This document shows positions 10,821-47,324 of a stretch of DNA of 53,241 nt, in pieces. The stretch is from the NCBI GenBank assembly GCA_034723545.1, contig JAYEPA010000001.1, positions 2,227-55,467 on the forward strand, read 5' to 3'. Within the stretch, counting starts at the first letter, position 1, and each line of letters starts with the position of its first letter. The stretch comes from Thermodesulfobacteriota bacterium. GTDB lineage: Bacteria > Desulfobacterota > Desulfobulbia > Desulfobulbales > SURF-16. The translations under genes were made by a program, and so were the position numbers. Under the pieces are notes generated by a model that worked only from the letters and a program-made list of their open reading frames with translations, had not been told where the DNA came from and ran no database searches.

Positions 10821-10989
10821 GTAACTATTCAGCTGCACCCCATCTTCGCCCATTTAGAGCTTCTCGAGTAACATTAGTACGCTTCAAATCTCTAAATGAA
10901 CAGGTAAGCGTAGACTCCGAATATGGGGCACATCTGAACAGTTACAGACCAAGTTTTTCGTAACATTTTTATACACGCTGAATAGTTAC
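10821..10989. mobile_element. Family A MITE (IS66-like ends)
   Basis: GTAACTATTCAG...CTGAATAGTTAC; 8-bp TSD GAAATAAG on both sides; micro-insert at 10902-10918. Confidence 0.9.
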
Positions 10990-11008
10990 GAAATAAGTTA
11001 GTTCTGTC

Positions 11009-11160
11009 GTATCTATTCAGCTACACCCCATCTTCGTCCATTTAAGCCTTTTCGAATAGCACCAGTATGCTTCAAAGTCTTAAATAAACGAATATGGGGC
11101 ACATCTGAATAGATACATTCGGTGGTTTTGGTTATTTTGAGATACTCGCTGAATAGTTAC
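11009..11160. mobile_element. Family A MITE (152-bp copy without insert)
   Basis: GTATCTATTCAG...CTGAATAGTTAC; TSD GTTCTGTC. Confidence 0.9.
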
Positions 11161-11247
11161 GTTCTGTCTAGTACCAAGGCACTTACACCCGCCAAGCGAG
11201 TACTGAAAAGAGTCCTGAAAGCTAATGTGGTTTTCCGCTTTAGTGGG

Positions 11248-11964
11248 TTAGGGAAGGTGGAATCCACCCTCGTGCAGGGAAGAGGCCTTATCCGCCAGCT
11301 GTTTTAATTTACTTTTAATCCGGGACAGCGGAACCAGGGACGGAATAACGGGCATACTCTCCTCAATGGCCTTAGGTGGATGGAGCTTCATCTTTTTTTC
11401 CATACTTTGGGAAAAATCCGTTTGAATTCCTCCATCCATGCCGGAAGCTGGTGATCCAGTACTGTCGATACTGCGGAGAAAGCTCATGATACTACCAATA
11501 TCGTTTTTTTGATAAAACAGTTTGATTTCCTCTTCAATGATTTCTCGGCTTTCCAGCAGTTCAGCATATTTTTCCCGGTAGGTTTCAACATGGTCCACCA
11601 GCATTTCATAGCAGTCCAGCACCAGATTCTTAAAACGGCCGGATTGAGTCAATCCCCGTGTTTTCACTCCTGCAAAAACTTTTTTTCTTATGGTTGGAGA
11701 CTGCAGCAGATAGGGATCGAAAAATATCTTTTTACCCAGTCCAGAGAGATCCAGAAATTTACGGATCAGACCATCGTCCTGGAGAAGGATGTACAGGCGA
11801 ACCAGATCCTGGATGATTTTATGCTCCACCGTGATTGAGGAAAAATGAAGCTCTTTGGCTAATTCTTCCTTATCCTCTTCAATGAGCTTACGAAAACCGA
11901 AGTAGCGCTCCGCAAGCTCCTTTTTGATTTCAAAGCTGAGAACTTTTGCAATATCTTCTGTCAT
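11248..11964 (-). CDS. Hypothetical protein, divergent from dnaG
   Basis: 238-aa ORF with strong SD AGGAGGG. Confidence 0.8.
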   Translation of the reverse strand: MTEDIAKVLSFEIKKELAERYFGFRKLIEEDKEELAKELHFSSITVEHKIIQDLVRLYILLQDDGLIRKFLDLSGLGKKIFFDPYLLQSPTIRKKVFAGVKTRGLTQSGRFKNLVLDCYEMLVDHVETYREKYAELLESREIIEEEIKLFYQKNDIGSIMSFLRSIDSTGSPASGMDGGIQTDFSQSMEKKMKLHPPKAIEESMPVIPSLVPLSRIKSKLKQLADKASSLHEGGFHLP

Positions 11965-12109
11965 ATTTCCCTCCTGGAAGCCTGTTTTTCTGTTTCTCAG
12001 TATAGTACCGATTTTTTGACAATCGATTTTATGGCCGGAAAGCGCCCCCTTGAAACATCAGGAGACAGGGTTTAAAAAAAACATTTTCAGATTTCGTAAA
12101 ATGCCTTAT

Positions 12110-12269
12110 TTAGTGCCTTACACCTGAAATCCTGTAATAAAAAACAAGAAATAAAAAAAATTACTTTTAAAATAAATGTACACCTACTGTTAAGGCACTT
12201 ACACCCGCCAAGCGAGTACTGAAAAGAGTCCTAAAAAATCTGATGTTTTCTTCCGCTTTAGTGGGTTAG
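12110..12269. mobile_element. Family B repeat, copy 2 (uninterrupted)
   Basis: TTAGTGCCTTA...TAAGGCACTTA followed by cacccgccaagcg...ccgctttagtgggttag. Confidence 0.7.
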
Positions 12270-12271
12270 GA

Positions 12272-12521
12272 TATAGTTGCGTAATCAAACCAGGTGACAA
12301 AATTTGACGCTTGAGCTGACATTTTGTAATATGTTGATATTGTTATTGTTTTAGTCAATATTTGCCTATCTCGTTTCCATATTGATCTACGGCATGGTTT
12401 CGACTGTAGGGGCAACCCTTGTGGTTGCTCTTTTTTGATTGCCACGCAGGGAAAGGTACCCACAAGGGGCACCCCTACGATTCGTGATTATTTTAATTCC
12501 ATACAAGTTTACGAAACTATA
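12272..12521. mobile_element. Putative MITE with 13-bp TIRs enclosing a REP doublet
   Basis: TATAGTTGCGTAA / TTACGAAACTATA (12/13 inverted match). Confidence 0.5.
12406..12478. repeat. GTAG-class REP doublet
   Basis: GTAGGGGCAACCCTTGTGGTTGCTC ... GGTACCCACAAGGGGCACCCCTAC inverted pair. Confidence 0.75.
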
Positions 12522-12581
12522 CTATCTTGCTTCTGATTATGCATCCGCCTTTTTTTGCATGGCGGATGAACCTAGAAAATT

Positions 12582-14351: not shown

Positions 14352-14366
14352 TATCATAGAGATTAT

Positions 14367-14787
14367 GTAACTATTCAGATGTGCTCCATCTTCGCCCATA
14401 TTTGGTCTTCTCGAATAGCACCAGTGCGGAGTCTTCGCTTCGCTCCGCTTACCGTTCAAAGCCCAGGTAAGCGTAGACTCCGAAATGAACGAATATGGAG
14501 CACATCTTAACAGTTACAGGCCGAGTTTTTCGTAACATTTTCACATACGCTTCTTCTAAGTAACAAGATTCTGATTAGCCTGTATAAAAAACGAAGAATC
14601 AGCACGATAAGTTAAAATTGGCCACTTACGTCATCCCGGCATGTTTTTAGCCGGGATCCAGGATGGTGTGTGTGGCTACTTTCTGGATTCCGGCTAAGGA
14701 CATGCCGGAATGACGATATAATTTATTTTGTTACTTGTAAAATAGATGCCGGGATCTTTACCCCCGGTTGCCTTGCTGAATAATTAC
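14367..14787. mobile_element. Composite family A MITE with two micro-inserts and nested repeats
   Basis: GTAACTATTCAG...CTGAATAATTAC; TSD GAGATTAT; internal end copy ends at 14517. Confidence 0.88.
14629..14715. repeat. CGTC-class REP doublet inside an AAGTAACAA...TTGTTACTT-bounded segment (14558-14736)
   Basis: CGTCATCCCGGCATG...GCCGGGATCCAG / CTGGATTCCGGC...CATGCCGGAATGACG. Confidence 0.75.
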
Positions 14788-14968
14788 GAGATTATTTACA
14801 ATAAAATTGAACGTTTTAAATTTTGAGGACACATCACAGACGATAGATCTCGTTAAAAAGCCAACCGTTTAATATTGTAACTTATTTATTACACATGCAA
14901 TAGTTCCATTCCTAGACGTGTGGCCTGAGATTCTAGGTTCAGGATCCCGATGTCTGGACGATAGAAAA

Positions 14969-16513: not shown

Positions 16514-16549
16514 TCGTTTTTTTCTGCTTTTTCCCCCAAAGATATTCTC

Positions 16550-16602
16550 CTGAACAGTTACGGAACGGTTATGCCAATTTGGCGGTCCACCTGAATAGAT
16601 AC
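16550..16602. mobile_element. Family A remnant (spacer module only)
   Basis: CTGAACAGTTAC-29 nt-CTGAATAGATAC; closely matches the reverse complement of 35398-35454. Confidence 0.75.
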
Positions 16603-17773: not shown

Positions 17774-17944
17774 GTAAATATTCTGCTAGCATCCCAATTT
17801 CGTCTGATTCGCCTTACTCACATATGACTAATATTGCTCGCAAGGCGACTTGAACGAACTTGGGGCTGACACCGCTACGCTGTTATCCAAACATTTACAA
17901 TTTATTGGCTTTAGCACTGATTTAACTCCAACTCGAATGTTTAC
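17774..17944. mobile_element. Family A-like MITE, subfamily A2 (171 bp)
   Basis: GTAAATATTC...GAATGTTTAC; TSD TCGGTTCT; near-identical inverted copy at 41305-41475. Confidence 0.9.
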
Positions 17945-20779: not shown

Positions 20780-20831
20780 GCGTTCACAGGAGAAGGCTGG
20801 TAACACTGTGCTCCACCCTGTGAACAGTTAC
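20776..20831. mobile_element. Short IS66-like inverted-repeat element
   Basis: GTAAGCGTTCACAGG / CCTGTGAACAGTTAC (13/15); overlaps the stop codon of the upstream gene. Confidence 0.55.
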
Positions 20832-20845
20832 AGCCCGGAGTTAGG

Positions 20846-21019
20846 GGTTATTTTCAGCTGCACCCCATCTTCGCCCATTTAGAGCTTCTTGAGTAACATT
20901 AGTACGCTTCGAATCTCTAAATGAACAAGAGGAGTCTCGCCAACTCGCTTACCGGGGGCACATCTGAACAGTTACAGTCTGGAGTAAAGGGAAATTTCCA
21001 GCCTACGCTGAATAGTTAC
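20846..21019. mobile_element. Family A MITE with degenerate left end
   Basis: Interior nearly identical to the 10821 copy; micro-insert at 20931-20954; no TSD found. Confidence 0.85.
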
Positions 21020-31368: not shown

Positions 31369-31582
31369 ATTGAAGAACACAAAGCAGGACGGGCGAATCA
31401 TTTCCACTGTCGTGGAAGTGGTTGTTTTTCTCGTTTCTACGTAGAGCGTGGAAACGAGACACAAAATCAAAGTTTCAGGCTGGAGGAAGAGAACTTTCTA
31501 TTTATTCACATTCAATTTATGGTATATTGAGCCCGTTTTCTTGAATAAAAATAAATCAACCAATCAACGTATCAACTATATC

Positions 31583-34584: not shown

Positions 34585-35271
34585 TCAGTGAACCATCTTC
34601 TCCTCGGACCAGTCATTATGCTCGAATTCTGAATGATCCGGTTTGGGAGGTTTGGCCTCGTCCATCCGCTGTTTGAGCCAGATGAGAATTTTATCAAATT
34701 CAGAAGCCGCCTCGGCCAGGGCCCTGCCGCGATGACTGACCTGATTTTTTTCTTCCATACTTGCTTCGGCAAAGGTTTTGTTAAGATCAGCCGAATAAAA
34801 TACCGGATCATAACCAAAACCGTCTTTTCCCCGGATTTCGTTGGTTATTTCACCCTCGCAGCGTCCCTCATATGTCAGGGCCGGGCCACTGGGGACGGCA
34901 ATAGACAGGACACATTCAAAGGCGGCTGCCCGGTCTGTCTTACCGGTCATTTCCTGGAGAAGTTTTTCTATGTTATCCTGATCAGTGGCACTCTCGCCTG
35001 CATAACGGGCCGAGTGTACGCCCGGGGCTCCATCAAGGGCCTTGACAACCAGACCGGAGTCGTCAGCAATGGCGGGCAGACCCAGAATTTTTGCCGTAAA
35101 CAGCGCCTTTTTATAGGCATTGTCATCAAAGGTCTCACCGTCTTCTTTGACCTCCGGGATTGGGCCAAAATCATTCAAATTCTTTAGCTCAACAGGAAAA
35201 TCCTTTAATAGGGCCTTAAACTCTTTGACTTTTCCCTCATTTCTGGTGGCGAGGACAATAATGTTATCCAT
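34585..35271 (-). CDS. rdgB: XTP/dITP diphosphatase (HAM1 family)
   Basis: ATRNEGK, ADDSGL, PGVHSAR, GFGYDP, SHRG. Confidence 0.95.
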   Translation of the reverse strand: MDNIIVLATRNEGKVKEFKALLKDFPVELKNLNDFGPIPEVKEDGETFDDNAYKKALFTAKILGLPAIADDSGLVVKALDGAPGVHSARYAGESATDQDNIEKLLQEMTGKTDRAAAFECVLSIAVPSGPALTYEGRCEGEITNEIRGKDGFGYDPVFYSADLNKTFAEASMEEKNQVSHRGRALAEAASEFDKILIWLKQRMDEAKPPKPDHSEFEHNDWSEEKMVH

Positions 35272-35321
35272 AAATGATCTCCTTGATAGAAAAATATGTG
35301 AAACGGATTAAATGCCAACTC

Positions 35322-35351
35322 CCCATACCCGCATTTTCATGCGGGTATGGG
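35322..35351. repeat. Perfect 13-bp hairpin upstream of rdgB
   Basis: CCCATACCCGCAT-TTTC-ATGCGGGTATGGG. Confidence 0.7.
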
Positions 35352-35397
35352 TATAGTCACCGAGTCACATACGTTTACTGATTTTTTAAAATATTTT

Positions 35398-35598
35398 ATA
35401 ACTATTCAGGTGGGGCCACCAAATTGGCCTAACCTCCGTTCCGTAACTGTTCAGATGTGCTTCATATTCGTTCATTCGGAGTCTCGTTCCTCACTTACCT
35501 GGGGCTTTGAACGGTAAGCGGAGCGAAGCGTAGACTCCGCACTGGTGCTATTCGAGAAGACCTAAATGGGCGAAGATGGAGTGCAGATGAATAGTTAC
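35398..35598. mobile_element. Family A MITE (inverted) with two micro-inserts
   Basis: ATAACTATTCAG...ATGAATAGTTAC; TSD AATATTTT. Confidence 0.9.
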
Positions 35599-35707
35599 AA
35601 TATTTTTTTGAATCTCTGTAGACTCTGTGAAAATTCTAAATAAAGTATCATAGGAAGTAATATACATAGATGGCGATGAAGTCAACTTTGACAGTAAGCG
35701 ATGAAAC

Positions 35708-35736
35708 AAAAAAAGCCCCTCCCGAAGGAGAGGCTT
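35708..35736 (-). terminator. Intrinsic terminator of the peroxiredoxin gene
   Basis: Minus strand AAGCCTCTCC-TTCG-GGAGGGGCTT followed by a T run. Confidence 0.8.
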
Positions 35737-35764
35737 GAGAAAAGAAAGGGAAAAAAGAAGAAAT

Positions 35765-36379
35765 TTACTCCAGAGCCTCAAAAACGTGACCCACCATTTC
35801 CGGAGAAGGGGTTAGAGTCTTGCTGCCTTCCTGCCAGTTTGCCGGACATGCTTCTTCCGGGTGGGTGGCTCCATAGATACAGGCTTTTAATTTACGAAGG
35901 GTCTCGGCAACGTTGCGGCCCACGTTGTAATAGTTCACCTCTGAGGCGGACAGAACACCTTCAGGGTTGATAATAAAGGTGCCGCGCAGGGCGAGTCCGG
36001 TGGCTTTATCATAAACTCCGAATAGTCTGGATACCTTGCGGGTGGGATCGGCACCCATGAGATATTGGGATTTTTCCAGCATTTTTTCATCGTTTTTCCA
36101 AGCCAGATGTGTGAACTGGGTGTCGGTGCTCACTGAAATTACCTCGGCGCCCACAGCCTTGAAAGCTTCGTACTGATCTGCCAGATCAGCATGTTCAGTC
36201 GCTCAGACAAAGGTAAAGTCTGCCGGATAAAAGAAGAGTACCGTCCATTTCCCCTCACCTTTTAACTGCTCCAATGAAATTTCACCGAAGGTAAATTCGC
36301 TGGGAATATATGTTTCCATTTTAAAGTCGTCGACCTGCTGGCCAACCTGAATTCCGTTGCCGCTTACACAATGAGCCAT
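35765..36379 (-). CDS. prxU: Selenocysteine-containing peroxiredoxin (AhpC/Prx1 type)
   Basis: The two tracked ORFs join in frame through TGA 36203-36205: FYPADFTFV-U-ATE; resolving motif EACPANW; SD GGAG before ATG 36379. Confidence 0.88.
36171..36191 (-). promoter_or_regulatory. Bacterial SECIS element
   Basis: TGCTGATCT-GGC-AGATCAGTA stem starts 11 nt after the UGA; G in the apical loop. Confidence 0.75.
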
Positions 36380-36461
36380 TTTTTTCTCCATAAAATAATT
36401 TTGACTTTTTTATACAAAATAAACGCTAATGAGCCATCTCAAAGAGTTTGTAGTATGTTTT

Positions 36462-36476
36462 TGATAACCATTATCA
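36462..36476. promoter_or_regulatory. Fur/PerR-family box upstream of the peroxiredoxin
   Basis: TGATAACCATTATCA, one mismatch from TGATAATnATTATCA. Confidence 0.6.
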
Positions 36477-36652
36477 TTGATTGGCTATCTTGTAAAGAAA
36501 AAAATGAAGAGTTCATGGTTTAACGGTATAATGTTGTCATAAATTTTTTTCTGAAGTCCGGATGTTCATTTTTTACGATCTTGTTAAGATCATTTCCCGC
36601 CCTTGACATCTCATTTTGAAAAGACTTAAATGGCGTCAATGCTAAAAAAAAC

Positions 36653-36821
36653 ATAACTATTCAGCGTAGGTAAAATATTCCGAAAAATTCGGTCTGTAAC
36701 TGTTCAGATGTGCTTCATATTCGTTCATTTCGGAGTCTACGCTTACCTGGGCTTTGAAGCATACTAGTGTTATTCGAGAAGGCCAAATATGGGCGAAGAT
36801 GAAGTGCAGCTGAATAGTTAC
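36653..36821. mobile_element. Family A MITE (inverted) inserted into the 5' end of aroK
   Basis: ATAACTATTCAG...CTGAATAGTTAC; TSD AAAAAAAC; micro-insert at 36732-36748. Confidence 0.9.
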
Positions 36822-37352
36822 AAAAAAACAAAGGTGATTTTGACAGGTTATCGGGCAACAGGAAAAAGTTCGGTTGGCAGGATCCTGGCCTCTATGCTGG
36901 ATTGGCGCTTCATTGATACCGATTTTGAAATCGAAAAAAGGCAGGGATTCTCAATCAGCCGGATAGTTGCCAAAAAGGGTTGGAAATTTTTCAGGGAACA
37001 GGAAAAAAAAATCCTTACAGAACTAGCGGAACGGGAGCAGGTTGTTATCGCCACCGGCGGCGGAGCCATCATGCATCAGCAAATATGGAACCGTCTGATG
37101 AAAAACGGGCTGGTTGTCTGGCTGACCGCTGATCCCCAAGTCATCTGTCAACGCCTTGCCGCCGATCCTGTTACGGAAGGTCAGCGGCCCTCTTTGACAA
37201 GCAGTGATATTTTAACAGAGGTCGAATCCGTGCTGCAGGAACGGGAACCTCTTTACCGGGCCGGCTCACATCTTAAAATCGATTCATCTTGTTCCGTTGT
37301 GGAAATCACTGAGGAAATAATGGCCTTTCTGGGTCGGATAAACCGTAATTAA
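36789..37352 (+). CDS. aroK: Shikimate kinase (N terminus derived from the MITE)
   Basis: GYRATGKS P-loop, DTD, FREQE, ATGGG, RPSL, REPLY. Confidence 0.9.
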   Translation: MGEDEVQLNSYKKTKVILTGYRATGKSSVGRILASMLDWRFIDTDFEIEKRQGFSISRIVAKKGWKFFREQEKKILTELAEREQVVIATGGGAIMHQQIWNRLMKNGLVVWLTADPQVICQRLAADPVTEGQRPSLTSSDILTEVESVLQEREPLYRAGSHLKIDSSCSVVEITEEIMAFLGRINRN

Positions 37353-37361
37353 AAATAAAAC

Positions 37362-37553
37362 TAGTGCTTGAACGAAAAGTATCCATCCATATGTTAACAC
37401 GGGTTGCGGACGATTCTTTGTGACGAAGATTTGTTAAAAAGTTGTTAGCAATTAGCTTTTAGCCGTTAACAGCTAATTGCTAAAGTCTTTATTTTGGAAT
37501 CGGATCTTAACTTCCTGAATAAAGTTTGTTTTTGACTTTTTGTTCAAACACTA
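37362..37553. mobile_element. MITE-like element between aroK and aroC with an internal palindrome
   Basis: TAGTGCTTGAACGAAAAGT / ACTTTTTGTTCAAACACTA (17/19); internal TTAGCAATTAGCT / AGCTAATTGCTAA at 37445-37483. Confidence 0.7.
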
Positions 37554-37589
37554 ATAATTCGTAATTAACCAACCACAGGCAACAATTAA

Positions 37590-38660
37590 ATGGCAGGAAA
37601 TACATTTGGACAGGTTTTTCGGGTGACGACCTGGGGCGAGTCCCATGGCACGGCGGTGGGGGCAACTATTGACGGATGTCCCCCAGGCTTATTGTTGACC
37701 CAGGAGATGATTCAAAAGGATATGGAGCGGCGGCGGCCCGGAACCGGAGGGGCAGCCAGTCCGCGCAAGGAACCGGATCAAGTGGAGATTCTCTCCGGTA
37801 TCTACGAGAATAAAACCACCGGCACCCCTCTTACCCTGGTTATCTACAATAAGGATGCCCACAGCAAGTCCTATGATACCCTGAAGAATATTTTTCGACC
37901 TGGTCATGGCGACATTACCTATCTGCGGAAGTATGGTATCCGGGATCATCGTGGCGGCGGCCGGGCATCGGCCAGGGAAACCGCAGCCCGTGTTGCTGTT
38001 GGAGCTGTGGCGCGGCAGCTGCTCGCTTCCAGAAATATTCAGGTTCAGGCTTACACCATAGCCCTGGGTGGTGTTGAAATCAGCAAGCGGGACATGAACG
38101 ACATTTCGAAAAACAGACTGTTTTGTCCTGATAATGAGGCGGCGGAACGTATGGAGGAGAGGATTGTCGAGGTGCGAAAGCAGCATGATTCGCTGGGCGG
38201 CATCGTCGAGATCCTCGCAAAAGGGTGTCCTGCAGGACTGGGAGAGCCGGTTTTTAACAAACTTGACGCGGAACTTGCCGGAGCCCTGATGTCCATCGGC
38301 GCTGTCAAGGGAGTGGAAATTGGCGCAGGTTTTGAGGCGGCTCGCCTGACCGGATCGGAAAACAATGATCCCATCACGCCTGGTGGCTTTGCGACAAACC
38401 GCTCGGGCGGAATCCTGGCCGGGATTTCCAACGGTGACGATATCGTCGCCCGTGTTGCCGTTAAGCCCATTCCTTCCATTGCCAGAGAGCAACAGACTGT
38501 TGACCTGGACAACAACCCGACCACCATCAAGGTCGGTGGACGTCATGATATCTCAGCGATACCGAGGATTATCCCTGTTTGCGAGGCCATGGTCTGTTTG
38601 ACCTTGGCCGATCATTTTTTGCGTCAGCAGGCGATTATGGGTTTCGCTGATCAGGAGTGA
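37590..38660 (+). CDS. aroC: Chorismate synthase
   Basis: GESHG, RPGH, RASARET, KPIPSI, GRHD. Confidence 0.97.
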   Translation: MAGNTFGQVFRVTTWGESHGTAVGATIDGCPPGLLLTQEMIQKDMERRRPGTGGAASPRKEPDQVEILSGIYENKTTGTPLTLVIYNKDAHSKSYDTLKNIFRPGHGDITYLRKYGIRDHRGGGRASARETAARVAVGAVARQLLASRNIQVQAYTIALGGVEISKRDMNDISKNRLFCPDNEAAERMEERIVEVRKQHDSLGGIVEILAKGCPAGLGEPVFNKLDAELAGALMSIGAVKGVEIGAGFEAARLTGSENNDPITPGGFATNRSGGILAGISNGDDIVARVAVKPIPSIAREQQTVDLDNNPTTIKVGGRHDISAIPRIIPVCEAMVCLTLADHFLRQQAIMGFADQE

Positions 38661-40264
38661 GGAGCCGAAAAAATATCGTGAAAGAACAAAAATATCCGTT
38701 GAAAACGATCTGGATGATCAGCCGGGAGTATGACGGCCTGGCCGGTGCAGGAGGGGTAAAGGATGTTTGCCGCCAGCTTGCCGAAGCCCTGGTCGCGGAA
38801 GGGAAAAATGTCAGCGTTATTCTGCCGTTTTATGGGTTCATGAAACTGGAAGAGACCGGCTTCAGGCTGTTTGATTCCTTTCAGGTTGATATGAACTATG
38901 TCGGCGTGGAACGCAGGGAGCAGGTGCAGATTTGGATCAGACAGCACGAGGACAAACCGACAATCTATCTGGTTGACGCGGCACGCTATCAGGAAAAGAA
39001 ATCCGTCTACACCTATACTGCCGAGGATGAGGCCGAAGATCCCGCCCATGTTCAGGGCACGGGCCATTATGATTACTTTGCCATGAATGTTCTGCTGCAG
39101 AAAACGGCAATTGATCTCATGCTCTGCCTGGGAGAAAAGGTGGATCTCATTCATTGTCATGATGGTCATACCGCCCTGTTGCCGGCCATGATTAAGGAAA
39201 ATGAGGGATATCGCCATTATTTTAGAAAAACGGGCCTGGTGGTGACCATCCATAATGCGGGATTGGGTTATCATCAGGAAGTGGCGGATTTGCCTTTTGC
39301 CAAAGTCGTTTCCGGCTTGCCTGGAAAGGTGCTTGCCAGAAATTTGCTGAAGGGCAGCTTTGACCCCTTTCTTGCCGCTTCCTCCTATGCTGTTCTTAAT
39401 ACCGTCAGTGAAAATTATGCCCGTGAGCTGCGGGAAACAGATGATGATGAACTGACGGGATTTCTGGGCCACATCCTGCTTTCCAGGGGAGTGACGCTTG
39501 AAGGTGTGACCAACGGCATCTCACCGGCCGATTTTGATACCCGAGAGCATGAAAAGCTCGGCATCGACGCCGGCTATTCGGTGATGGCTGGAGATTTTGC
39601 CGGTAAGATTATCTGTCGGCAAAAACTGATCCAGGATATTAACGGCAAAAAATTGACTCATGTTCAGCAGAACGGCAGCCTGACCCAGGCAGATGACGTG
39701 CCGCTTTTGACCCTGATCGGTCGTCTGACCGCCCAGAAAGGGGTGGATAAATTGATCGGCGCTCTTGAAACACTGTTGCCCACGGACAAAGAATTTCAGG
39801 TTTTGATTCTCGGAAGCGGTATCAGGGAGATTGAAGACGGATTGCTCCGGTTGACGAAAAACAGTGCAAACAAGGGACGGGTCTGTCTGTTGCGGGGCTA
39901 TGATCCTGGGCTTGCGAACCGGATTTATGCGGCTGGAGATTTTTTTCTTGTTCCGTCGAGATACGAGCCCTGTGGCCTGACGGATTATATTGCCCAGCTT
40001 TTCGGTAACCTTCCCATTGTTCATCATATCGGCGGGCTGGTGAAAGTAATTGACGGCAAAACAGGATTTACCTATCAGGATCACAGTTCCGCTGCTCTTA
40101 TGGGCGCCATGCAGAAGGCGATTCGCGTCTATCGGAAGCAGAATGGCCGGATCAAAGAAATGCAGCTGCAGGCTGTCACAACGATTTCAGAAAAATATAC
40201 CTGGAAAAAAATTGTCCATCGTTACCTGCATCTCTACGGCAAGGCTCTGGATATGGCCGGATAA
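38657..40264 (+). CDS. glgA: Glycogen synthase-like glycosyltransferase (GT5)
   Basis: HCHD, TIHN..Y, TVSENYA, GRLTAQKG, PSRYEPCGL; atypical N-terminal GAGGVKDV. Confidence 0.8.
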   Translation: MRSRKNIVKEQKYPLKTIWMISREYDGLAGAGGVKDVCRQLAEALVAEGKNVSVILPFYGFMKLEETGFRLFDSFQVDMNYVGVERREQVQIWIRQHEDKPTIYLVDAARYQEKKSVYTYTAEDEAEDPAHVQGTGHYDYFAMNVLLQKTAIDLMLCLGEKVDLIHCHDGHTALLPAMIKENEGYRHYFRKTGLVVTIHNAGLGYHQEVADLPFAKVVSGLPGKVLARNLLKGSFDPFLAASSYAVLNTVSENYARELRETDDDELTGFLGHILLSRGVTLEGVTNGISPADFDTREHEKLGIDAGYSVMAGDFAGKIICRQKLIQDINGKKLTHVQQNGSLTQADDVPLLTLIGRLTAQKGVDKLIGALETLLPTDKEFQVLILGSGIREIEDGLLRLTKNSANKGRVCLLRGYDPGLANRIYAAGDFFLVPSRYEPCGLTDYIAQLFGNLPIVHHIGGLVKVIDGKTGFTYQDHSSAALMGAMQKAIRVYRKQNGRIKEMQLQAVTTISEKYTWKKIVHRYLHLYGKALDMAG

Positions 40265-40270
40265 CATGAA

Positions 40271-40419
40271 GTAAATATTCGACAGCACTCCACAGGAAGG
40301 CGATCAGGCTACCCCGCATACCGATGTGTAGCAAGTTAGCCTGCTTAACTCCCTGTGAAGCGCTGTCAAACATTTACAAGTTGGTGGTTTGAGTTATTTT
40401 CATTGAGCCGAATGTTTAC
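40271..40419. mobile_element. Family A-like MITE, subfamily A3
   Basis: GTAAATATTCG...CGAATGTTTAC; TSD AACATGAA; internal end copy ends at 40377. Confidence 0.88.
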
Positions 40420-40454
40420 AACATGAAAAGCACTTATTTTCTGAAGATAGTATC

Positions 40455-41279
40455 ATGACTGAGCTAAGGCAACAGCAATCCCCCGTTGTTTTATCAAACC
40501 GATGGTTTGCCCAGCGACATGATTTTTTTGTCAAAAATGTGTTTGAAGGGTTTTATAAAAATCGGACCTTCTTCATTGGGCTGTATGATCGGTATAACAA
40601 TACCGGGCAGATCTCGTTTTCTGATATAGCCGAACTGGTCGGTGTTGAAAATCACAAAGGGTTGTGGCTCGTCAAGGATCGCTGTCATCAGCTCTGGCGC
40701 GATGGTGAATCCCGGTTTGACAGCAATGGTTTTTTTCTTGATTGGGTGATCGGTTCTCTTTTTCATGAGGCTGTCAAGCTGAAAGAAAATATCTATATGT
40801 TTCACTTCTATGCGCCCCAGGCGGATGAGATTAAAAAGCAGTTCAAAAATGAAATAATGGGAAGCGATGCAGCATGCCTGAGTTTTATGGAAGGAACCGA
40901 GGTGGAGATTCGGAAGCAGATGGATAATCTTGCCTTGCTGTTTGGCCGGGCCAATTATCTGCTGCGCTCCATGCTGGTCAGCCAGTCCGGCAATGTGTTG
41001 TTAATTCGCTATCTGATCGAAAGAAAAGATGTTGTACAAGAACTTTGGTCCGAGTCCCTGGAAGAACTTTTTGACGATATGTATCCCGGCGGGCCGGAGC
41101 AGGGGTTTTGTCTGGCCGGGAAAAACTATCTTGACGGACATTGGCATGACAGGGCATTTATGGCCTATTCCGCCGCCTTGGAGATCAACCCGAAATGTGA
41201 CGATGCTCTGCGCAGGATCTCTCAGATCAAGATCACGTTACGGCATAAGGAAGAATTCGGCCAGGTTGAATTAAATTGA
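40455..41279 (+). CDS. Hypothetical protein with a C-terminal TPR-like helix pair
   Basis: 274-aa ORF; AYSAALEINP TPR signature. Confidence 0.75.
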   Translation: MTELRQQQSPVVLSNRWFAQRHDFFVKNVFEGFYKNRTFFIGLYDRYNNTGQISFSDIAELVGVENHKGLWLVKDRCHQLWRDGESRFDSNGFFLDWVIGSLFHEAVKLKENIYMFHFYAPQADEIKKQFKNEIMGSDAACLSFMEGTEVEIRKQMDNLALLFGRANYLLRSMLVSQSGNVLLIRYLIERKDVVQELWSESLEELFDDMYPGGPEQGFCLAGKNYLDGHWHDRAFMAYSAALEINPKCDDALRRISQIKITLRHKEEFGQVELN

Positions 41280-41304
41280 ACAAAAAATTCTACACGATAA
41301 AATG

Positions 41305-41475
41305 GTAAACATTCGGGTTGGAGTTAAATCAGTGCTAAAGCCACTAAATTGTAAATATTTGGATAACAGCGAAGCGGTGTCAGCTCCAATTTAGTTCAAG
41401 TCGCCTTGTGAGCTATATTAGTCATATGTGAGTAAGGCGAATCGGACGAAATTGGGGTGCTAGCCGAATATTTAT
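41305..41475. mobile_element. Family A-like MITE, subfamily A2 (inverted), next to the gap RBS
   Basis: GTAAACATTCG...CGAATATTTAT; TSD ATAAAATG. Confidence 0.9.
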
Positions 41476-41494
41476 ATAAAATGGGAGACAGGTT

Positions 41495-42499
41495 ATGACG
41501 GTAAAGGTTGGAATTAACGGATTTGGACGAATCGGCAGAAATATTTTCAGGGCCATTGATAAGGATGAAACATTTGCGGATATCGAGGTCGTAGCCATCA
41601 ATGACCTTACCAACAATGAAACACTGGCCCATCTGCTCAAATATGATTCGGTTATGGGTGTGTATGAGCGGGATGTGAAGGCAGATGAAAAAGGCATTGT
41701 CGTTGATGGCCGGCATATCGATATTTTTAATCACCGCAATCCAGCCGAGATTCCCTGGGGCAGTATCGGCGTGGATTATGTCATTGAGTCAACCGGTCTG
41801 TTCCGTGACGCTGAAAGTGCCGGCGCTCATCTTGATGCAGGTGCTAAAAAAGTGGTGATTTCAGCACCGGCCAAGGGAAAAATTAGAACCATTGTCATGG
41901 GTGTCAATGAGCATGAGTATGATCCAAGCAAGGACCATATTGTTTCAAATGCGTCCTGCACCACCAACTGCCTTGCCCCGGTTGCCAAGGTTATTCTTGA
42001 TCATTTCGGCATCAAAAAGGGCCTGATGACAACGATCCATGCCTATACTAATGATCAGCGCATTCTTGACTTTCCCCACTCGGATCTGCGCCGGGCCAGG
42101 GCTGCCGCTGTTTCAATGATCCCGACCGGGACAGGGGCTGCCGCCGCTGTTTCCCTGGTTATTCCGGAGCTGAAAGGAAAATTTGACGGCCTGTCTGTCC
42201 GGGTGCCGACACCCAATGTCTCCCTGGTGGACATGGTTATTGAAGTGGAGCAGGAAACCACGGTTCCGGAAGTGAATCAGGCCTTGAAAGACGCAGCTGA
42301 CCGCTTTCTCGGCTACTCGGACGAGCCCCTGGTTTCCATCGATTACCAGGGCAACCCTCACTCCTCGATTGTTGATGCCATGTCCACTAAGGTCATCGGC
42401 AACATGGTCAAAATTATGACCTGGTATGATAATGAATGGGGCTATTCCAACCGGATGCTGGATTTGATTCTGTTCATGGAAAGCCAGAAACCGTTGTAG
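41495..42499 (+). CDS. gap: Type I glyceraldehyde-3-phosphate dehydrogenase
   Basis: GINGFGRIG, ASCTTNCL, TGAA, RVPT, WYDNEWGYS. Confidence 0.97.
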   Translation: MTVKVGINGFGRIGRNIFRAIDKDETFADIEVVAINDLTNNETLAHLLKYDSVMGVYERDVKADEKGIVVDGRHIDIFNHRNPAEIPWGSIGVDYVIESTGLFRDAESAGAHLDAGAKKVVISAPAKGKIRTIVMGVNEHEYDPSKDHIVSNASCTTNCLAPVAKVILDHFGIKKGLMTTIHAYTNDQRILDFPHSDLRRARAAAVSMIPTGTGAAAAVSLVIPELKGKFDGLSVRVPTPNVSLVDMVIEVEQETTVPEVNQALKDAADRFLGYSDEPLVSIDYQGNPHSSIVDAMSTKVIGNMVKIMTWYDNEWGYSNRMLDLILFMESQKPL

Positions 42500-42557
42500 A
42501 GGAATCAGTTAGATTGGTTTTATTGGTTGGATTTGTTTAAATAGTTCTTCAACCAGT

Positions 42558-42711
42558 GTAAATATTCGGGTAGCACCTCATCTTCGCCCATTAGGCCCAG
42601 CTCGAGTAGCACTAGTACGCTTCGCTGCCCCAAATGAACGAATATAAGGCACTACCCAAATATTTACAGTTCCAGGTTGTTGCGATTTTTTCGTATAACC
42701 CGAATATTTAC
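42558..42711. mobile_element. Family A MITE with variant ends, inserted in a 9-mer repeat tract
   Basis: GTAAATATTCGGG...CCCGAATATTTAC; TSD CAACCAGT. Confidence 0.9.
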
Positions 42712-42765
42712 CAACCAGTTCAACCAATCTAACCAATTCAACCAGTAAAACCAGTTTAACCAATC
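42712..42765 (+). repeat. Nonamer tandem repeat (NAACCART[CTA], 6 units), with inverted units at 42508-42538
   Basis: caaccagtt caaccaatc taaccaatt caaccagta aaaccagtt taaccaatc; a similar tract flanks the element at 17748-18022. Confidence 0.75.
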
Positions 42766-42778
42766 CAACAAAAAAACC

Positions 42779-45700
42779 ATGCCCCCCATCCAATCAGATG
42801 CCCTGAAGGCAAATCTCGAGGAAACCGCAGTTGACGAGGTCGTCATCGATCCCGCCATGGAGGTTCTCATCGAGATTGTCCACGATATGAAGGGAATTCG
42901 CAACTCCATCGAAGAGTTGCTCTATGAGATTCATCATCCCTTCCGAAACTGGAACATGATTGTTCCCAGACTGCGGACATTTGTTCTGAAAAACGAGAGA
43001 TTGTATCATCGTCATCCTATGGGTGCCGAGGCCTTCAGCCGTTTTACCGATATCTTTTTTCTGGCCCTGCAAGAGGCTGGTAAAAACCATACCCTGCTGG
43101 CCCTGACTATGGAATCTCTCCTTGCCTATTTTGCAAAGAGCGTAACCCTGGAACCAAAAACCCTGCCGCGTTTTGAACCTGCCCATGCCGCCTGTTTTGA
43201 AAAATTGCGCGGCCTTGATGATCAGATCATTATGTACATGGTTCAGGGTCGTCATCCCATGAAGAAAATTGCCATCTTTCTTTTGCACTACAGTGAGGAG
43301 GAAAACCAGGCCTATGATCTGCGGCCCGTGGGATGTCTCATGCAGCGGGTGCTGACGTTAAATTACGAATACTGGCTGGCGGAAGAGGATCCCCTGCCCT
43401 GGTTTCTGGCCGAGTGCAGCGATATGTGCAATGACTGGCAGGCCGGCAAACTTTTCCATGCTGTTTCCCATGAGCAGCTCACGCTCCATCTGGACGCTCT
43501 TGGCAGGATTGATATTGAAACATCACCCGGTCGGTTGCTGGAGATCCTTGCCCTGCCCTCCCATATGGATCTTGTCCGCCTGTACAAGGATATCCCGAAA
43601 AAACTGGCTGAATTGCAGAAAAACGGGGAATCCGGAGAGGGAAAGGACAAAGCGGACCGGTTTGCCGAGAACCGGAAATTGCTTTTTCTCTTTCGGATCA
43701 TGAGGACCTCCGGTCTTTACCTGATTCACGAAGAGACCCTGCGGGAAATCAACCGCAGCCTGGTGCAGCTGATTCGCCTCCAGACCTTTGAAGAGATTAA
43801 ATCCTTTTTGCTCACCACGCTGCATCTCTTGAAGGCCAATGTCAGAAAATATCCCCATACCTCCATGCAATGCATTCAGGTTCTGGGAACCGAGGTCTTC
43901 AAGCGCGGCAATAGCAGGCTTGTGGAAACCTTTCTTTTTGAAGTTGTTCGTTTCGGTTTCCAGTTCGCCAATGTCGTCGGGGTTGATGAGGATTGGCAGC
44001 CCATAACAAATCCTGCTCATCTGGCTAATATTCGCGTCTGGCTGAACATGATCATGCAGGAGCCCAAATGGTGCTCCATCCTGTTCTCGGCCCTGATCAT
44101 TAACCTCAATCTCTCCGGAACCTGCGTCAAGGATACCGACCTCTTTCAACGTGACATTACCAGGCTTCTGAATCATCCCATTGAGCCGGTTTATAACCTG
44201 GTAAAACAGTTTGCCAAGATCATGCCGGTTTTCTTTAACGAAATCGGCGCGGAAGGAAAGCTGCGTGATGTCTCCACCGAGATTGACGAGACCCACAAGC
44301 GAAAGGATCTCCTGATCCATTTTCTCCGCAAGCAGAGCCATGTGGAAAGCTCAAATCTCATTGTCGATTTTATCCGAGCCATTATCATCTTCTGGAAAAC
44401 AAGGGACAAGGAGGAGTTACGGGATTACCTGCCCGATGAGATCCTGAGCCAGGTGGCGACCGAGGGTGTTTTTGTTAATGATCTTCATTTGCTGGTCAAC
44501 CGAGCCTTTGCGCTGCCTAATATCAGCACGGAGAAAGATCTGCTTGACTGGGACCAGCAGCACATCGACCTTTTTTTGGCTGAGCAAACCGACCTGAACC
44601 CGGTCGAGGTCAACCGGTTTTCCTTGCTGGTCAAGATGTACAAGCTGCTGGATCAGAAATACAATCTGGGCCTGCAGCAGTTTCGCCAGCAGCTTGAGCA
44701 GGCAATTAACTCCGGCTTTCCGGAGATGGAGGAACTGCTGGCCGATCTGGAGATCTGTGACACCTTCCAGTGTCTTGGCGCCCTTCTTGACGGACTGGAG
44801 AGATTGAAGGATATTATCCAGAGTGACGAGGTTTTTCCCGTGCAGGAGGATATCTATCATAAGAGGCACATTGCCGTGGATATTCCCTCGGTTTATGGTC
44901 GTTACAGCGAGAAAAAATTTGATGCCCTGGGCCTGACTTTTCGGCTGGAAAGTTTGGCCAACATCTATCTGGAAAAGTTGCCTTCCACGGTGAATCTTTC
45001 TTTTATCACCCGGGCCACTTTTATTGACATCGTCAAATGTCTCAAGCTGTACCTGCGAGCCTTGAATATTGACGGCATTTCCAGCCGCAGGCTGCAGACT
45101 TATGTCTCGCTGCTGTCAAGTTCCCTGAAACTCAGGCGGTTTTCCTATACCCAGTATCTGGACATTCTGCGCGGTCTTTCAGAAGGGGTCAAGGATGTCA
45201 TTTATGCCTATTACACCAATATTCACCAGAATAATCTTTCTATTATCATTCCCCAGATCGGTTCAAGAAATTTACTGGCAAAATACCGCAATCTCTGGCA
45301 CCAGGCCGCAGTCCATGGGCAGGGGAAAGTTCCTGTCGACGATGTGGTGGATTTGCCGACCAAGGCCAGTATTCATCGTTTGTCCGAGGCCTTTCTCCGT
45401 GATCTGATTGCCACCACTTTTGGACTGCAGCATCTGGATAATTTTATCACCAGGATCTACCAGACCCTGGAGCGGCAAATAAAAGTGCTGGACGAAGAAC
45501 GCCTTGACCTTCTGATGACCTATAATCCGGAAAGGGTTATTCATCTGCTGCACCGGCGGAATCCCGAAACCCATAATTTGATTCTCCTCGGCAATAAGGG
45601 TTTTAATCTGACCCTGCTGGCCGATGATGATAAACCGGTGCCGCCTGGTTTTATCATCACCACCGAAATTTTCCGCTGCTGGCCGGTGGTCAAGGATTTT

Positions 45701-47068
45701 TTCAAGGCCCGTGACGAGTTCATGAGCCAGATCCGCCAGGCCTTAACCCAGATTGAAGATAAGACAGGCCGACTTTATGGCGCTCCGGACAGGCCGCTGT
45801 TGGTGTCAGTACGCAGTGGCGCCGCCGTTTCCATGCCAGGCATGATGGCCACTATCCTTAATGTCGGATTGAACAGGGACATTGTCGAGGGTTTTGCCCA
45901 GAGCACGGGTCAGACCTACCTGGCCTGGGACAATTACCGGCGATTTCTGCAGACCTGGGCCATGACTCTGGGCGTGGAACGGGAAACTTTTCAGGCCTTG
46001 ATGAACGAGGCTAAAGCCAGACATCAGGTGAGCGTAAAAAGGCTGTTTACCGCCGGCCAGATGAAAGAACTTGCCTTAAATTATCAACAGACCATCCGTG
46101 ATCTCGGCATCACCATTCCAGACGATCCCTGGCTGCAGCTCATCGGGGCGGTTGAAATGGTGCTGAACTCCTGGAGTGCCGAAAAAACAAAGGATTTCAG
46201 AAAATTGATGGATGTCTCCGACTCATGGGGCACAGCCGTGATTGTTCAAAGTATGGTTTTTGGAAATATGGGCTCTCACTCCGGCAGCGGTGTGGTTTTT
46301 ACAGCCCACCCCTATCGTAAGGTGCGGCGGGTTGCCCTCTGGGGTGATTATGCCAGCAGTGATCAGGGCGAGGATATCGTCGGCGGTTTGGTCACCACCT
46401 ATCCCGTCTCCGTGGAGCAGGCCGAGATCGATGGCCGGCCCATAAAATTTACCCTGGAAAAAAAATCACCGGAAATCTATGATGAACTTCTTGCCATAGC
46501 CCGTGACCTGGTTTACGAAAAGCGATGGAATCCCCAGGAAATCGAGTTTACCTTTGAAGGTCCCAGTCGCTCTGATCTTTATATTTTGCAGACCAGGGAC
46601 ATGATCACCATCAAGAAAAAAGAGCGTTTTGATGTTTTTGTGGATGACGCAGAGTCGGGTAGTGATTTCTTGGGTAAGGGTATTGGAGTCAGTGGCAGTG
46701 CCCTGTCCGGCCGGGCCGTTTTTACGGGGGAAAATGTTAAACAGCTCCGCAGGGAAGACCCGGAGACTCCACTTATCCTTATCCGCCAGGATACGGTCCC
46801 CGAGGACATTCGGGAGATTTCACTTGCAGACGGACTGCTCACGGCCCGCGGCGGCCAGACATCCCATGCCTCGGTGGTGACCTTGCGTCTGGAGAAAACC
46901 TGCGTGGTGGGCTGCCGCACTCTGCAGGTGTATGAGACCGATGAGCGCTGCGAAATTGACGGTCAGATCATCCGCTTTGGCGATCCCATCAGTATTGACG
47001 GCAGAAAGGGGCTTTTTTTGAAAGGAAGTCACCCCGTGGAAGAGAAGATTCATATTCTGCCGATTTAA
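42779..47068 (+). CDS. PPDK-like dikinase: large N-terminal region + ATP-grasp + phospho-His swivel domain, no pyruvate barrel
   Basis: LGNKG, PVPPGFIITT, LVSVRSGA..SMPGMM.T, VQSMVFGN, QGEDIV, LQTR, GGQTSHASVV. Confidence 0.85.
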   Translation: MPPIQSDALKANLEETAVDEVVIDPAMEVLIEIVHDMKGIRNSIEELLYEIHHPFRNWNMIVPRLRTFVLKNERLYHRHPMGAEAFSRFTDIFFLALQEAGKNHTLLALTMESLLAYFAKSVTLEPKTLPRFEPAHAACFEKLRGLDDQIIMYMVQGRHPMKKIAIFLLHYSEEENQAYDLRPVGCLMQRVLTLNYEYWLAEEDPLPWFLAECSDMCNDWQAGKLFHAVSHEQLTLHLDALGRIDIETSPGRLLEILALPSHMDLVRLYKDIPKKLAELQKNGESGEGKDKADRFAENRKLLFLFRIMRTSGLYLIHEETLREINRSLVQLIRLQTFEEIKSFLLTTLHLLKANVRKYPHTSMQCIQVLGTEVFKRGNSRLVETFLFEVVRFGFQFANVVGVDEDWQPITNPAHLANIRVWLNMIMQEPKWCSILFSALIINLNLSGTCVKDTDLFQRDITRLLNHPIEPVYNLVKQFAKIMPVFFNEIGAEGKLRDVSTEIDETHKRKDLLIHFLRKQSHVESSNLIVDFIRAIIIFWKTRDKEELRDYLPDEILSQVATEGVFVNDLHLLVNRAFALPNISTEKDLLDWDQQHIDLFLAEQTDLNPVEVNRFSLLVKMYKLLDQKYNLGLQQFRQQLEQAINSGFPEMEELLADLEICDTFQCLGALLDGLERLKDIIQSDEVFPVQEDIYHKRHIAVDIPSVYGRYSEKKFDALGLTFRLESLANIYLEKLPSTVNLSFITRATFIDIVKCLKLYLRALNIDGISSRRLQTYVSLLSSSLKLRRFSYTQYLDILRGLSEGVKDVIYAYYTNIHQNNLSIIIPQIGSRNLLAKYRNLWHQAAVHGQGKVPVDDVVDLPTKASIHRLSEAFLRDLIATTFGLQHLDNFITRIYQTLERQIKVLDEERLDLLMTYNPERVIHLLHRRNPETHNLILLGNKGFNLTLLADDDKPVPPGFIITTEIFRCWPVVKDFFKARDEFMSQIRQALTQIEDKTGRLYGAPDRPLLVSVRSGAAVSMPGMMATILNVGLNRDIVEGFAQSTGQTYLAWDNYRRFLQTWAMTLGVERETFQALMNEAKARHQVSVKRLFTAGQMKELALNYQQTIRDLGITIPDDPWLQLIGAVEMVLNSWSAEKTKDFRKLMDVSDSWGTAVIVQSMVFGNMGSHSGSGVVFTAHPYRKVRRVALWGDYASSDQGEDIVGGLVTTYPVSVEQAEIDGRPIKFTLEKKSPEIYDELLAIARDLVYEKRWNPQEIEFTFEGPSRSDLYILQTRDMITIKKKERFDVFVDDAESGSDFLGKGIGVSGSALSGRAVFTGENVKQLRREDPETPLILIRQDTVPEDIREISLADGLLTARGGQTSHASVVTLRLEKTCVVGCRTLQVYETDERCEIDGQIIRFGDPISIDGRKGLFLKGSHPVEEKIHILPI

Positions 47069-47147
47069 GGAATCGAATGAAGTAGCTTTAAAAGGCACAT
47101 TTCCAGAAAGTGGCAGTAATTGGGCAATGTATACACTAGAGAAATTG

Positions 47148-47324
47148 GTAATAGTTCACCAGCACCCCATCTATGCACGATCAGGCCGGCTCACAGGACT
47201 ACTATCGTTCGCTGGCCTGATCGGAGTCTCCGCTACACTATGCTTACCTGCACATATATGAGGCACTGGTAAACTATCATATTTCGGAATTCCCCCAAGG
47301 ATTTAGCCCTTGGTGAGCTGCTAC
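47148..47324. mobile_element. Family A-like MITE, subfamily A4, with micro-insert
   Basis: GTAATAGTTCACCA...TGGTAAACTATCAT...TGGTGAGCTGCTAC with the same geometry; no TSD retained. Confidence 0.7.

Follow-up and report, generated by a model that had tools for sequence, protein, structure and literature searches.

Intergenic miniature elements with IS66-type ends and a covarying, strand-biased hairpin in Desulfobulbales

Introduction

IS66-family elements are common, and the mechanism by which they transpose is poorly understood. Their ends begin with 5′-GTAA, and the members of the ISBst12 group, about 1.35-1.9 kb in length, carry one transposase ORF without tnpA or tnpB. The window, by which we mean the whole stretch of 53,241 nucleotides analysed here, contains a series of short repeats with GTAA ends, whose full copies consist of a hairpin, a spacer and a further end motif. 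The question raised by this locus is which enzyme mobilises these repeats, and what has kept their hairpin and their spacing.

Results

Copy number, termini and target duplications

The blastn census revealed a family member at each of the 12 starts that a sequence-only reading had proposed in the window (Table 1). All 12 copies are real and located between genes, many of them amid runs of genes in the same direction; their description required amendment in that the copy at 16550 is a tail only, the copy at 47148 is degenerate, and several coordinates were corrected. The nine exact 8-bp target duplications proposed earlier were recovered with the same words. When end pairs with an exact 8-bp duplication were collected across the genome, 153 were obtained, against 0 in three shifted controls, and the tail pattern described below occurred 91 times, against 0 for a backwards control, so that the duplication pairs lie far above chance.

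The census comprised about 428 loci, which amount to 56.6 kb or 1.7% of the genome. The elements are small, non-coding and present in high copy number, the commonest length being 152 bp (47 copies). In a set of 116 oriented copies, the left motif was GTAACTATTCAG in 69 and the right motif was GTAACTATTCAG in 79, while the internal motif, which differs from the terminal one at a single base, was GTAACTGTTCAG in 70. The first four positions of the left end were G (97%), T (100%), A (100%) and A (90%), with a much similar composition at the right end, and the target duplications were 76% A+T. Many copies lie close to a contig end, at a distance of up to about 200 bp, and for 30 of the 116 no gene was called on one flank in the contig concerned.

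Table 1. Positions of the family members in the window, with the parts of each copy and its target duplication.
Copy	Type	Span	Strand	Hairpin	Internal motif	Spacer	Terminal motif	Duplication	Remarks
10821	full copy, 169 bp	10821..10989	+	10821-10945	10934-10945	10946-10977	10978-10989	GAAATAAG	17-nt insert 10902-10918 in hairpin
11009	canonical 152-bp copy, GTATC subfamily	11009..11160	+	11009-11116		11117-11148	11149-11160	GTTCTGTC	
14367	421-bp composite	14367..14787	+	14367-14517		14518-14549		GAGATTAT	two inserts in hairpin; terminal motif broken off after 2 nt and joined to a 5′-truncated second MITE type, whose right end is the closing end of the element; duplication brackets the entire composite
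16550	tail-only fragment	16550..16602	+		present	29 nt	present	none	
17774	full copy, GTAAAT subfamily, 171 bp	17774..17944	+		17887-17898	17899-17932	17933-17944	TCGGTTCT	
20846	remnant and 5′-truncated copy	20821..21019	+		20964-20975		21008-21019	none	remnant (hairpin arm and tail) 20821-20845 fused to 5′-truncated copy 20846-21019
35398	full copy, 201 bp, left-hand tail	35398..35598	-	35443-35598		35410-35442	35398-35409	AATATTTT	two inserts in hairpin
36653	full copy, 169 bp, left-hand tail	36653..36821	-	36696-36821		36665-36695	36653-36664	AAAAAAAC	one insert in hairpin
40271	full copy, 149 bp	40271..40419	+	40271-40377		40378-40407	40408-40419	AACATGAA	
41305	full copy, 171 bp, left-hand tail	41305..41475	-			41317-41350	41305-41316	ATAAAATG	
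42558	full copy, 154 bp	42558..42711	+		42656-42667	42668-42699	42700-42711	CAACCAGT	
47148	degenerate copy, GTAAnnGTTCACC subfamily	47148..47324	+		mutated		mutated	none	

Candidate transposase and recent mobility

The link to the IS66 family, which had been proposed from the GTAA ends and the 8-bp duplications, is now strengthened by a matching DDE_Tnp_IS66 element and by empty sites. On contig 36, another contig of the same genome, a resident element was identified at about 124-1853 of locus L001; it spans about 1730 bp, encodes a single 484-aa ORF with the DDE_Tnp_IS66 domain (E 2e-45) and is ISBst12-like in having one ORF within this length. Both of its ends are identical to the termini of the miniature elements over 12-17 nt, for the main subfamily only, and its two ends are identical to each other for 13-17 nt; the resident element has no target duplication of its own. 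Relatives of it at 61-62% identity (L014, L015 and L140) possess the same ends together with exact 8-bp duplications, and a further relative at 70% identity (L139) possesses the same ends and no matching duplication. For the GTAAAT and GTTCACC subfamilies, no matching transposase element was found in the genome, which is a 94%-complete assembly of 307 contigs with only two PF03050 hits, and no long element (600-8000 bp) with such ends and exact duplications was found in this genome. The other PF03050 hit lies on contig 61 and was rejected as a partner because of its different ends and its ORF with a DruA domain.

A search of relatives for unoccupied insertion sites gave precise empty sites with a single target word for two window copies, namely that at 41305 in both of the same-genus genomes G001 and G002, and that at 42558 in G001. 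At the site of the 40271 copy, G002 retains only a 7-bp remnant. Among DNA contigs of related strains from four runs, the stretch 16524-16601 is absent and a divergent allele stands in place of 14367-14947, neither of which is a clean empty site. The elements have thus been mobile recently, and they occur in sulfate-reducing bacteria across the order Desulfobulbales. A hit is also listed for a cultured strain, Desulfogranum marinum DSM 2058. In an even phylum-wide sample, the exact tail pattern was found in 0 of the 300 other genomes, and the phage and plasmid collections gave no match to the element. Nine pattern hits in viral contigs were all rejected (0/9 genuine), as none has a left end that matches and their appearance is that of tandem repeats embedded in other sequence.

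Most probably, the elements are MITEs that descend from an IS66-family element of the ISBst12 group, distributed across Desulfobulbales and mobilised in trans, the resident element being the candidate source of transposase. What the analysis shows are the termini, the target duplications, an element that matches them and the empty sites, together with the covariation and the strand bias described below. A DDE transposase supplied in trans, perhaps by the resident single-ORF element, would recognise the outer left and outer right motifs and insert the element into A+T-rich DNA via an 8-bp staggered cut. The body is a hairpin of roughly 108 nt whose so-called internal end is the complement of the left end, followed by a variable spacer of 30-37 nt and then by the true right end.

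The internal motif as part of a covarying hairpin

Each full copy had been described as carrying three end motifs. All three are present; however, the internal one pairs with the left end and almost never serves as an end, just two hairpin-only elements with duplications having been identified in the element lists. The "internal end" is therefore not a transposon end; within a covarying hairpin, it is the sequence with which the left end pairs. The consensus hairpin contains 36 pairs, at 24 of which changes were found on both sides, and 95.5% of the cells were paired as compared with 82.4% after shuffling, with 0 of 500 shuffles attaining the observed values. Compensatory change was detected even within the 12-bp terminus, where the GTATC of the subfamily of that name pairs with GATAC.

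The proposal of a fixed hairpin length, 106-110 bp with inserts removed, has to be refined. The hairpin measured 108 nt in only 50 of the 116 copies, and the others carry inserts of 17-27 nt with their duplications retained; insert-bearing copies have been able to move, therefore the hairpin is not of one set length. The subfamilies are mutually alignable with a mean column identity of 69%, therefore part of the geometry that they share reflects common descent. The same alignability would suit a frozen accident, in which one arm was duplicated once by folding back and the strand bias described below arose from one-sided C-to-T mutation rather than from selection. This we regard as very improbable, in view of the changes on both sides at two thirds of the pairs and of the strand data given below.

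The tail and its spacing

The right-hand motifs had been placed 41-46 bp apart with a mode of 44, and this was borne out: the distance from internal to terminal motif was 41-46 bp in the window copies measured, and its genome-wide mode was 44. The exceptions in the window are the 14367 composite, the tail of which is interrupted, and the 47148 copy, at which no motif was found. The spacer was 32 nt in 84 of the 116 copies (range 30-36) and 30-37 nt in other genomes, so that its length is kept across Desulfobulbales while its sequence varies. The earlier view of a widely varying spacer needs one qualification, as the sequences group into about eight or more families, which are exchanged among hairpin types and are not free-form. 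The companion claim of selection on geometry rather than sequence is supported by this order-wide spacer length, with the qualification noted above that part of the shared geometry reflects common descent. In the tail alone, a consensus fold gave no structure, and no conserved sequence was found.

These observations can also be read in another way, namely that the internal motif is an extra duplex binding site for the transposase, kept a set distance away from the right end as in the two-site ends of Sleeping Beauty type transposons, with the hairpin and its strand bias as side effects. The tight spacing suits such a site, as do the one-base difference between internal and terminal motifs despite the near-absence of internal ends in use, and the avoidance of the tail by small inserts (2, against 154 in the hairpin). 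Nevertheless, an extra duplex site would leave unexplained the covariation over all 36 pairs, the compensatory change within the GTATC terminus and the excess of G.U over A.C cells reported below. Moreover, six autonomous copies whose ends were inspected have plain ends with neither a hairpin nor an internal motif about 44 bp in. We consider this possibility unlikely, though not negligible. In the Sleeping Beauty type of IR/DR (PMC5224488), two sites are present at both ends and bound by the transposase; the likeness lies in an end motif that recurs in direct orientation a set distance away within one end, whereas here only one end has two sites, their binding is putative, and what was measured is their spacing.

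Strand asymmetry of the hairpin

We consider strand asymmetry, which the sequence-only reading missed, to be the most informative feature of the elements. The better-folding strand was the one with the tail at its 5′ side in 116 of 116 copies from this genome (mean −59.6 versus −40.3 kcal/mol) and in 68 of the 73 that came from other genomes (−60.1 versus −46.4 kcal/mol). The bias was also seen with DNA parameters, and the gap between the strands was wider with RNA parameters. The paired columns of 43 representatives, which are related to one another so that the cells are not independent events, contained 231 G.U cells and 7 A.C cells. A count by geometry only gave about 237 versus 25, because it includes a symmetric column pair outside the predicted structure, in which A.C occurs in 17 of the 43.

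The strand bias points to selection on a single strand, whether as ssDNA or as RNA. Singleton changes in young clusters lean the same way (32 versus 10), with a much weaker bias than the fixed changes (Fisher p 2e-5), and in clusters of at least 97% identity they gave 10 G.U versus 4 A.C; since singletons still lean to G.U, some mutational bias is possible. This leaning would be expected of the frozen accident considered above. Against it, the bias is far stronger in fixed than in singleton changes, the route from C-G to U-A requires a change on each strand and yet the A.C intermediate is nearly absent, and the favoured strand has a tail rich in A rather than in T.

The insertion orientation showed no bias with respect to flanking genes (25 versus 25), GC skew (40 versus 30) or the majority gene strand (24 versus 21), therefore these comparisons give no tie between the favoured strand and transcription or replication. 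Whether the favoured strand is the sense or the antisense strand of the transposase was also considered; two weak hints conflicted, and no assignment was made.

It is possible, in our tentative estimate, that the hairpin works as RNA, either as a small RNA made by the element or as a stabiliser, processing site or terminator in host transcripts. In paired columns, C-G, U-G and U-A were found together without C-A, a pattern of RNA-like evolution, and a tandem U.G/G.U step was retained in 35-39 of the 43 representatives; the wider energy gap with RNA parameters and the position of the window copies between genes, often in same-direction runs, agree with such a role. On the other side, the even orientation towards flanking genes, a tail with neither conserved sequence nor fold, and the absence of any site recurring in the copies in a promoter and terminator scan of 35000-43000 speak against it. 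Rfam gave no match at the gathering score, and none for any of the copies when E values as high as 1 were admitted. Among the 20 public runs listed as holders, none was of RNA.

Returning to trans-mobilised MITEs, we infer that selection has maintained the hairpin in those lineages in which transposition continues, and that the hairpin acts when one particular strand, which has the tail on its 5′ side, is unpaired. It may act as a folded ssDNA form, the reading that we prefer, though at well under even chances, and a strand-specific RNA role appears about equally likely. Folded ssDNA would form at the replication fork or as a copying intermediate. As folding collapses the body, the left terminus would always come to lie about 44 nt from the right one, whatever the length of the hairpin; at one end, duplex DNA would give way to the hairpin, and the separation of the two termini would be determined by the 44-nt tail.

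Discussion

In the literature, no description of an IS66 or ISBst12 MITE was found, and nothing was found on ISBst12 together with MITE, on miniature inverted repeats of Desulfobulbaceae, or on cable bacteria together with IS66. The available portions of PMC10969869, PMC3189936, PMC12888890 and the preprint 10.1101/2024.01.18.576219 contain nothing relevant. No match to an already described element, which would have removed the novelty assumed earlier, was found within the literature searched and Rfam. With the ISBst12 group, the elements share GTAA termini, 8-bp duplications and, over 12-17 nt, the ends of a partner with a single DDE_Tnp_IS66 gene; they differ from the six autonomous copies inspected in possessing a hairpin and an internal motif.

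Several known elements resemble the present ones in part. Correia elements of Neisseria and ERIC/IRU elements of enterobacteria are likewise intergenic palindromic units, 100-150 bp in length, which fold into hairpins when transcribed. Correia elements duplicate TA, in contrast to the 8 bp duplicated here, and we know of no third-motif tail, nor of a strand bias this strong, in either group. REP/BIME and the palindromic elements of the IS200/IS605 type are also high-copy intergenic hairpins with one-strand character, one strand being read as ssDNA, but they rely on HUH enzymes and make no target duplication, whereas the present elements have 8-bp duplications and DDE-type ends. In integron attC sites, structure is kept over sequence and one strand only folds into the active form. 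The likeness to them is a mechanistic analogy only. Recombination at attC is carried out by a tyrosine integrase and leaves no target duplication, whereas the present elements are bounded by inverted ends and by duplications of 8 bp. Were a folded strand the substrate here, the situation would resemble that of attC sites or of IS608 ends, apart from the inverted termini and the 8-bp target duplications.

What is new here is a hairpin that folds far better on one strand. The hairpin appears to be under selection on that strand only, which is unusual for such an element. The hundreds of natural variants reveal the features that survive in still-moving lineages, namely ends of 12 bp, a hairpin pairing one end and maintained on a single strand, and a variable spacer of fixed length. 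By analogy, small derivatives of IS66-family DDE elements might require a folded single strand of fixed polarity, either as an intermediate or as the form that is recognised, the alternative being a structured RNA made by the element and needed for movement; we put this forward as a doubtful generalisation. The family offers a direct and cheap handle on whether this DDE enzyme family uses a single-stranded or folded substrate. In addition, the elements disrupt metagenome assemblies, and the presence or absence of individual copies can be used as a strain marker. Elements of this family are also present inside Desulfobulbales operons.

Genome-wide census of the MITEs

The source assembly comprises 3.32 Mb in 307 contigs with 47.8% G+C, and was estimated to be 94% complete. 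An unbiased blastn census recovered all 12 copies that the sequence-only reading had claimed in the window, at the same starts, and the nine exact 8-bp target duplications claimed with them were confirmed, their words being identical to those stated. Genome-wide, the census yielded 428 loci of the MITE family, which sum to 56.6 kb (1.7% of the genome). Since 30 of the 116 oriented copies lacked a called gene on one side inside the contig, and a contig end lay within about 200 bp of many copies, this copy number is a lower bound.

In the end-pair scan, each forward end-like motif was paired with each reverse one lying 60-600 bp apart, and identical outer 8-mers were required. The results revealed 153 pairs with identical flanking 8-mers, and none in controls whose 8-mers lay 10, 20 or 30 bp farther from the ends. 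The length distribution had its peaks at 152 bp, with 47 pairs, and at 169 bp, with 19. An internal reverse motif was located 38-52 bp from one end in 121 of the 153 pairs (mode 44), to which a relaxed test added 14; the pairs left over were composites and further small elements that share these termini. Two hairpin-only elements were picked by eye from the end-pair lists.

Empty sites, proposed earlier as a check in relatives, were sought by comparing a 4.6-kb stretch with two same-genus genomes whose flanks are 88-94% identical. The sites of copies 41305 and 42558 were found there without the element and with a single copy of the target word, and at the site of copy 40271 one of these genomes (G002) retains 7 bp of the right end and one target copy. 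Relatives of the source genome carry the Desulfobulbales names Desulfobulbus, Desulfobulbaceae, Desulfocapsaceae, Desulfurivibrionaceae, Desulfopila, Desulforhopalus and Desulfogranum marinum. The exact tail pattern occurred in 13 of 41 close relatives, the source genome counted, as well as in many named Desulfobulbales assemblies, and in none of 300 other genomes evenly sampled from the phylum. No published description of the family was found in the searchable literature, a scope that leaves ISfinder and supplementary tables outside.

Candidate partner transposase element

Two PF03050 (DDE_Tnp_IS66) matches were present in the genome. The element on contig 36, of roughly 1730 bp, carries one 484-aa ORF (DDE_Tnp_IS66, E 2e-45, plus DUF6444) and has no duplication of its own. 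Comparison of ends within the genome bore out the proposed IS66 link: the termini of this element equal those of the MITEs over 12-17 nt at both ends. We consider the assignment of the family as IS66/ISBst12-type MITEs solid. Five other genomes of the order encode transposases 61-70% identical to the contig 36 enzyme, inside elements that share its element's ends; three of these elements (L014, L015 and L140) are bounded by exact 8-bp duplications, the 70% relative at L139 has none, and the left flank is missing at L141. Neither the hairpin nor an internal motif some 44 bp from the end occurs in the contig 36 element or in its autonomous relatives examined. A degenerate second end-motif copy in the contig 36 element is a direct repeat, with an offset of 13-15 bp and not 44 bp.

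The second match, an IS66-like element on contig 61, was rejected as the partner, as its inverted ends of roughly 25 bp differ from those of the MITEs; in it a DruA-domain ORF (152 aa seen) immediately precedes the 530-aa DDE_Tnp_IS66 ORF. At L142, a locus in another genome (G060) with a 43% identical transposase, the right end of the element resembles the MITE internal motif (CTGAACAGTTAC), so that a related enzyme may use that motif variant as a true end.

A covarying hairpin with strand asymmetry

Most copies have GTAACTATTCAG as the outer motif on the left and on the right, and the internal motif, on the opposite strand, is GTAACTGTTCAG, which differs from them at position 7. Members of the GTATC subfamily show a joint change of left end and internal motif, and their right end is unchanged. 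The spacer has the constant length and variable sequence noticed before: a length of 32 nt was measured for 84 of the 116 copies, with extremes of 30 and 36, and 73 parsed foreign copies ranged over 30-37 nt; the sequence is poorly conserved. No consensus fold was found for the spacers, which fall into some 8 or more families that have recombined with hairpins of different families.

Forty-three hairpin representatives sharing less than 88% identity, 20 of them from this genome and 23 from others, were aligned; RNAalifold gave a consensus of 36 pairs, 24 of which showed compensatory changes on both sides. Paired cells amounted to 95.5%, versus 82.4% after shuffling and 32-47% with the partner slid, and none of 500 shuffles reached any observed pairing measure. 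The hairpin is very probably a selected fold. The internal motif reported as a third end motif is indeed present; it serves as the pairing partner of the left end in this covarying hairpin and hardly ever as an end.

The present analysis newly recognised a strand asymmetry, which the sequence-only reading did not contain. The strand with the tail at the 5′ side of the hairpin folded better in all 116 copies of this genome (mean −59.6 versus −40.3 kcal/mol for the complement) and in 68 of 73 foreign copies, the 73 being those with a findable left end among 98 pattern matches (means −60.1 versus −46.4 kcal/mol); window copies showed the same bias with RNA and with DNA folding parameters. The 36 paired columns held 1244 Watson-Crick, 231 G.U and 7 A.C cells, with G.U exceeding A.C in 43 of 43 representatives. 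One symmetric column pair outside the predicted structure held A.C in 17 of the 43, which makes a geometry-only count about 237 G.U to 25 A.C. Columns with both C-G and U-A also contained U-G and lacked C-A, a pattern that one-strand mutation alone cannot yield. Singleton changes in young clusters were only mildly biased (G.U to A.C, 32 to 10 in clusters of ≥90% identity, 10 to 4 in those of ≥97%), in contrast to the fixed pattern (Fisher p 2e-5), which we read as selection acting at element propagation, not on each resting copy.

Hairpins with inserts of 17-27 nt still moved, and small inserts were found in the tail in only 2 of 156 cases. From this tolerance of the still mobile hairpin, the near absence of inserts from the tail and the fixed tail length, we tentatively favour a folded single-strand state, in which the left and right termini would always lie 44 nt apart. 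A putative auxiliary binding site on duplex DNA and a function of the hairpin as RNA, compatible with each other, are alternatives of similar or somewhat lower probability. Against a role as host RNA, orientation relative to same-direction flanking genes was balanced (25 against 25), bias relative to GC skew or gene-strand majority was absent, the copies scanned had no recurring promoter-like site, and no Rfam match was obtained.

Other repeats beside the MITEs

Features located in the window and in the resident contig 36 element (L013/L001)
Position	Feature	Remark
10902-10918	Tiny insert	
14427-14453	Tiny insert	
14467-14483	Tiny insert	
16550	Tail-only MITE fragment	No exact 8-bp duplication
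20821-21019	5′-truncated MITE copy fused to remnant	No exact 8-bp duplication
47148	Decayed MITE copy	No exact 8-bp duplication
14552-14787	Second MITE type	
11176-11252 and 12192-12270	Pair of direct repeats, about 1016 bp apart, with identities of 98% and 86%	Bracket ORF 11248-11964
12000-12399	Sharp rise in metagenome contig depth	
32618-32995	At least 12 tandem 21-bp units, 61-77% identical to reference copy	Inside long ORF 31448-32962
L013/L001 1826-1853	Degenerate second end-motif copy	1 nt inside right end of resident element

The tiny insert has fixed 8-nt ends (GGTAAGCG ... AGACTCCG) with 1-12 variable nt between them, most copies measuring 17 nt. The genome contains 223-227 copies; 171 lie within the MITEs, where they are concentrated at a few hairpin hot spots, and most of the others examined lie within other repeats. 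The contexts of the insert comprise 129 different 8+8-nt sequences, nearly always between CA and AA, and no duplication is visible. How so small a unit could be mobile is not explained by any mechanism known to us.

Many genome loci contain a second type of MITE, roughly 220 bp in length, that has the same 12-14 nt termini. It is often joined to the hairpin family in composites of 300-450 bp; a single 8-bp duplication around each whole indicates that these composites moved as units. The rise in metagenome contig depth at 12000-12399 suggests another dispersed repeat family.
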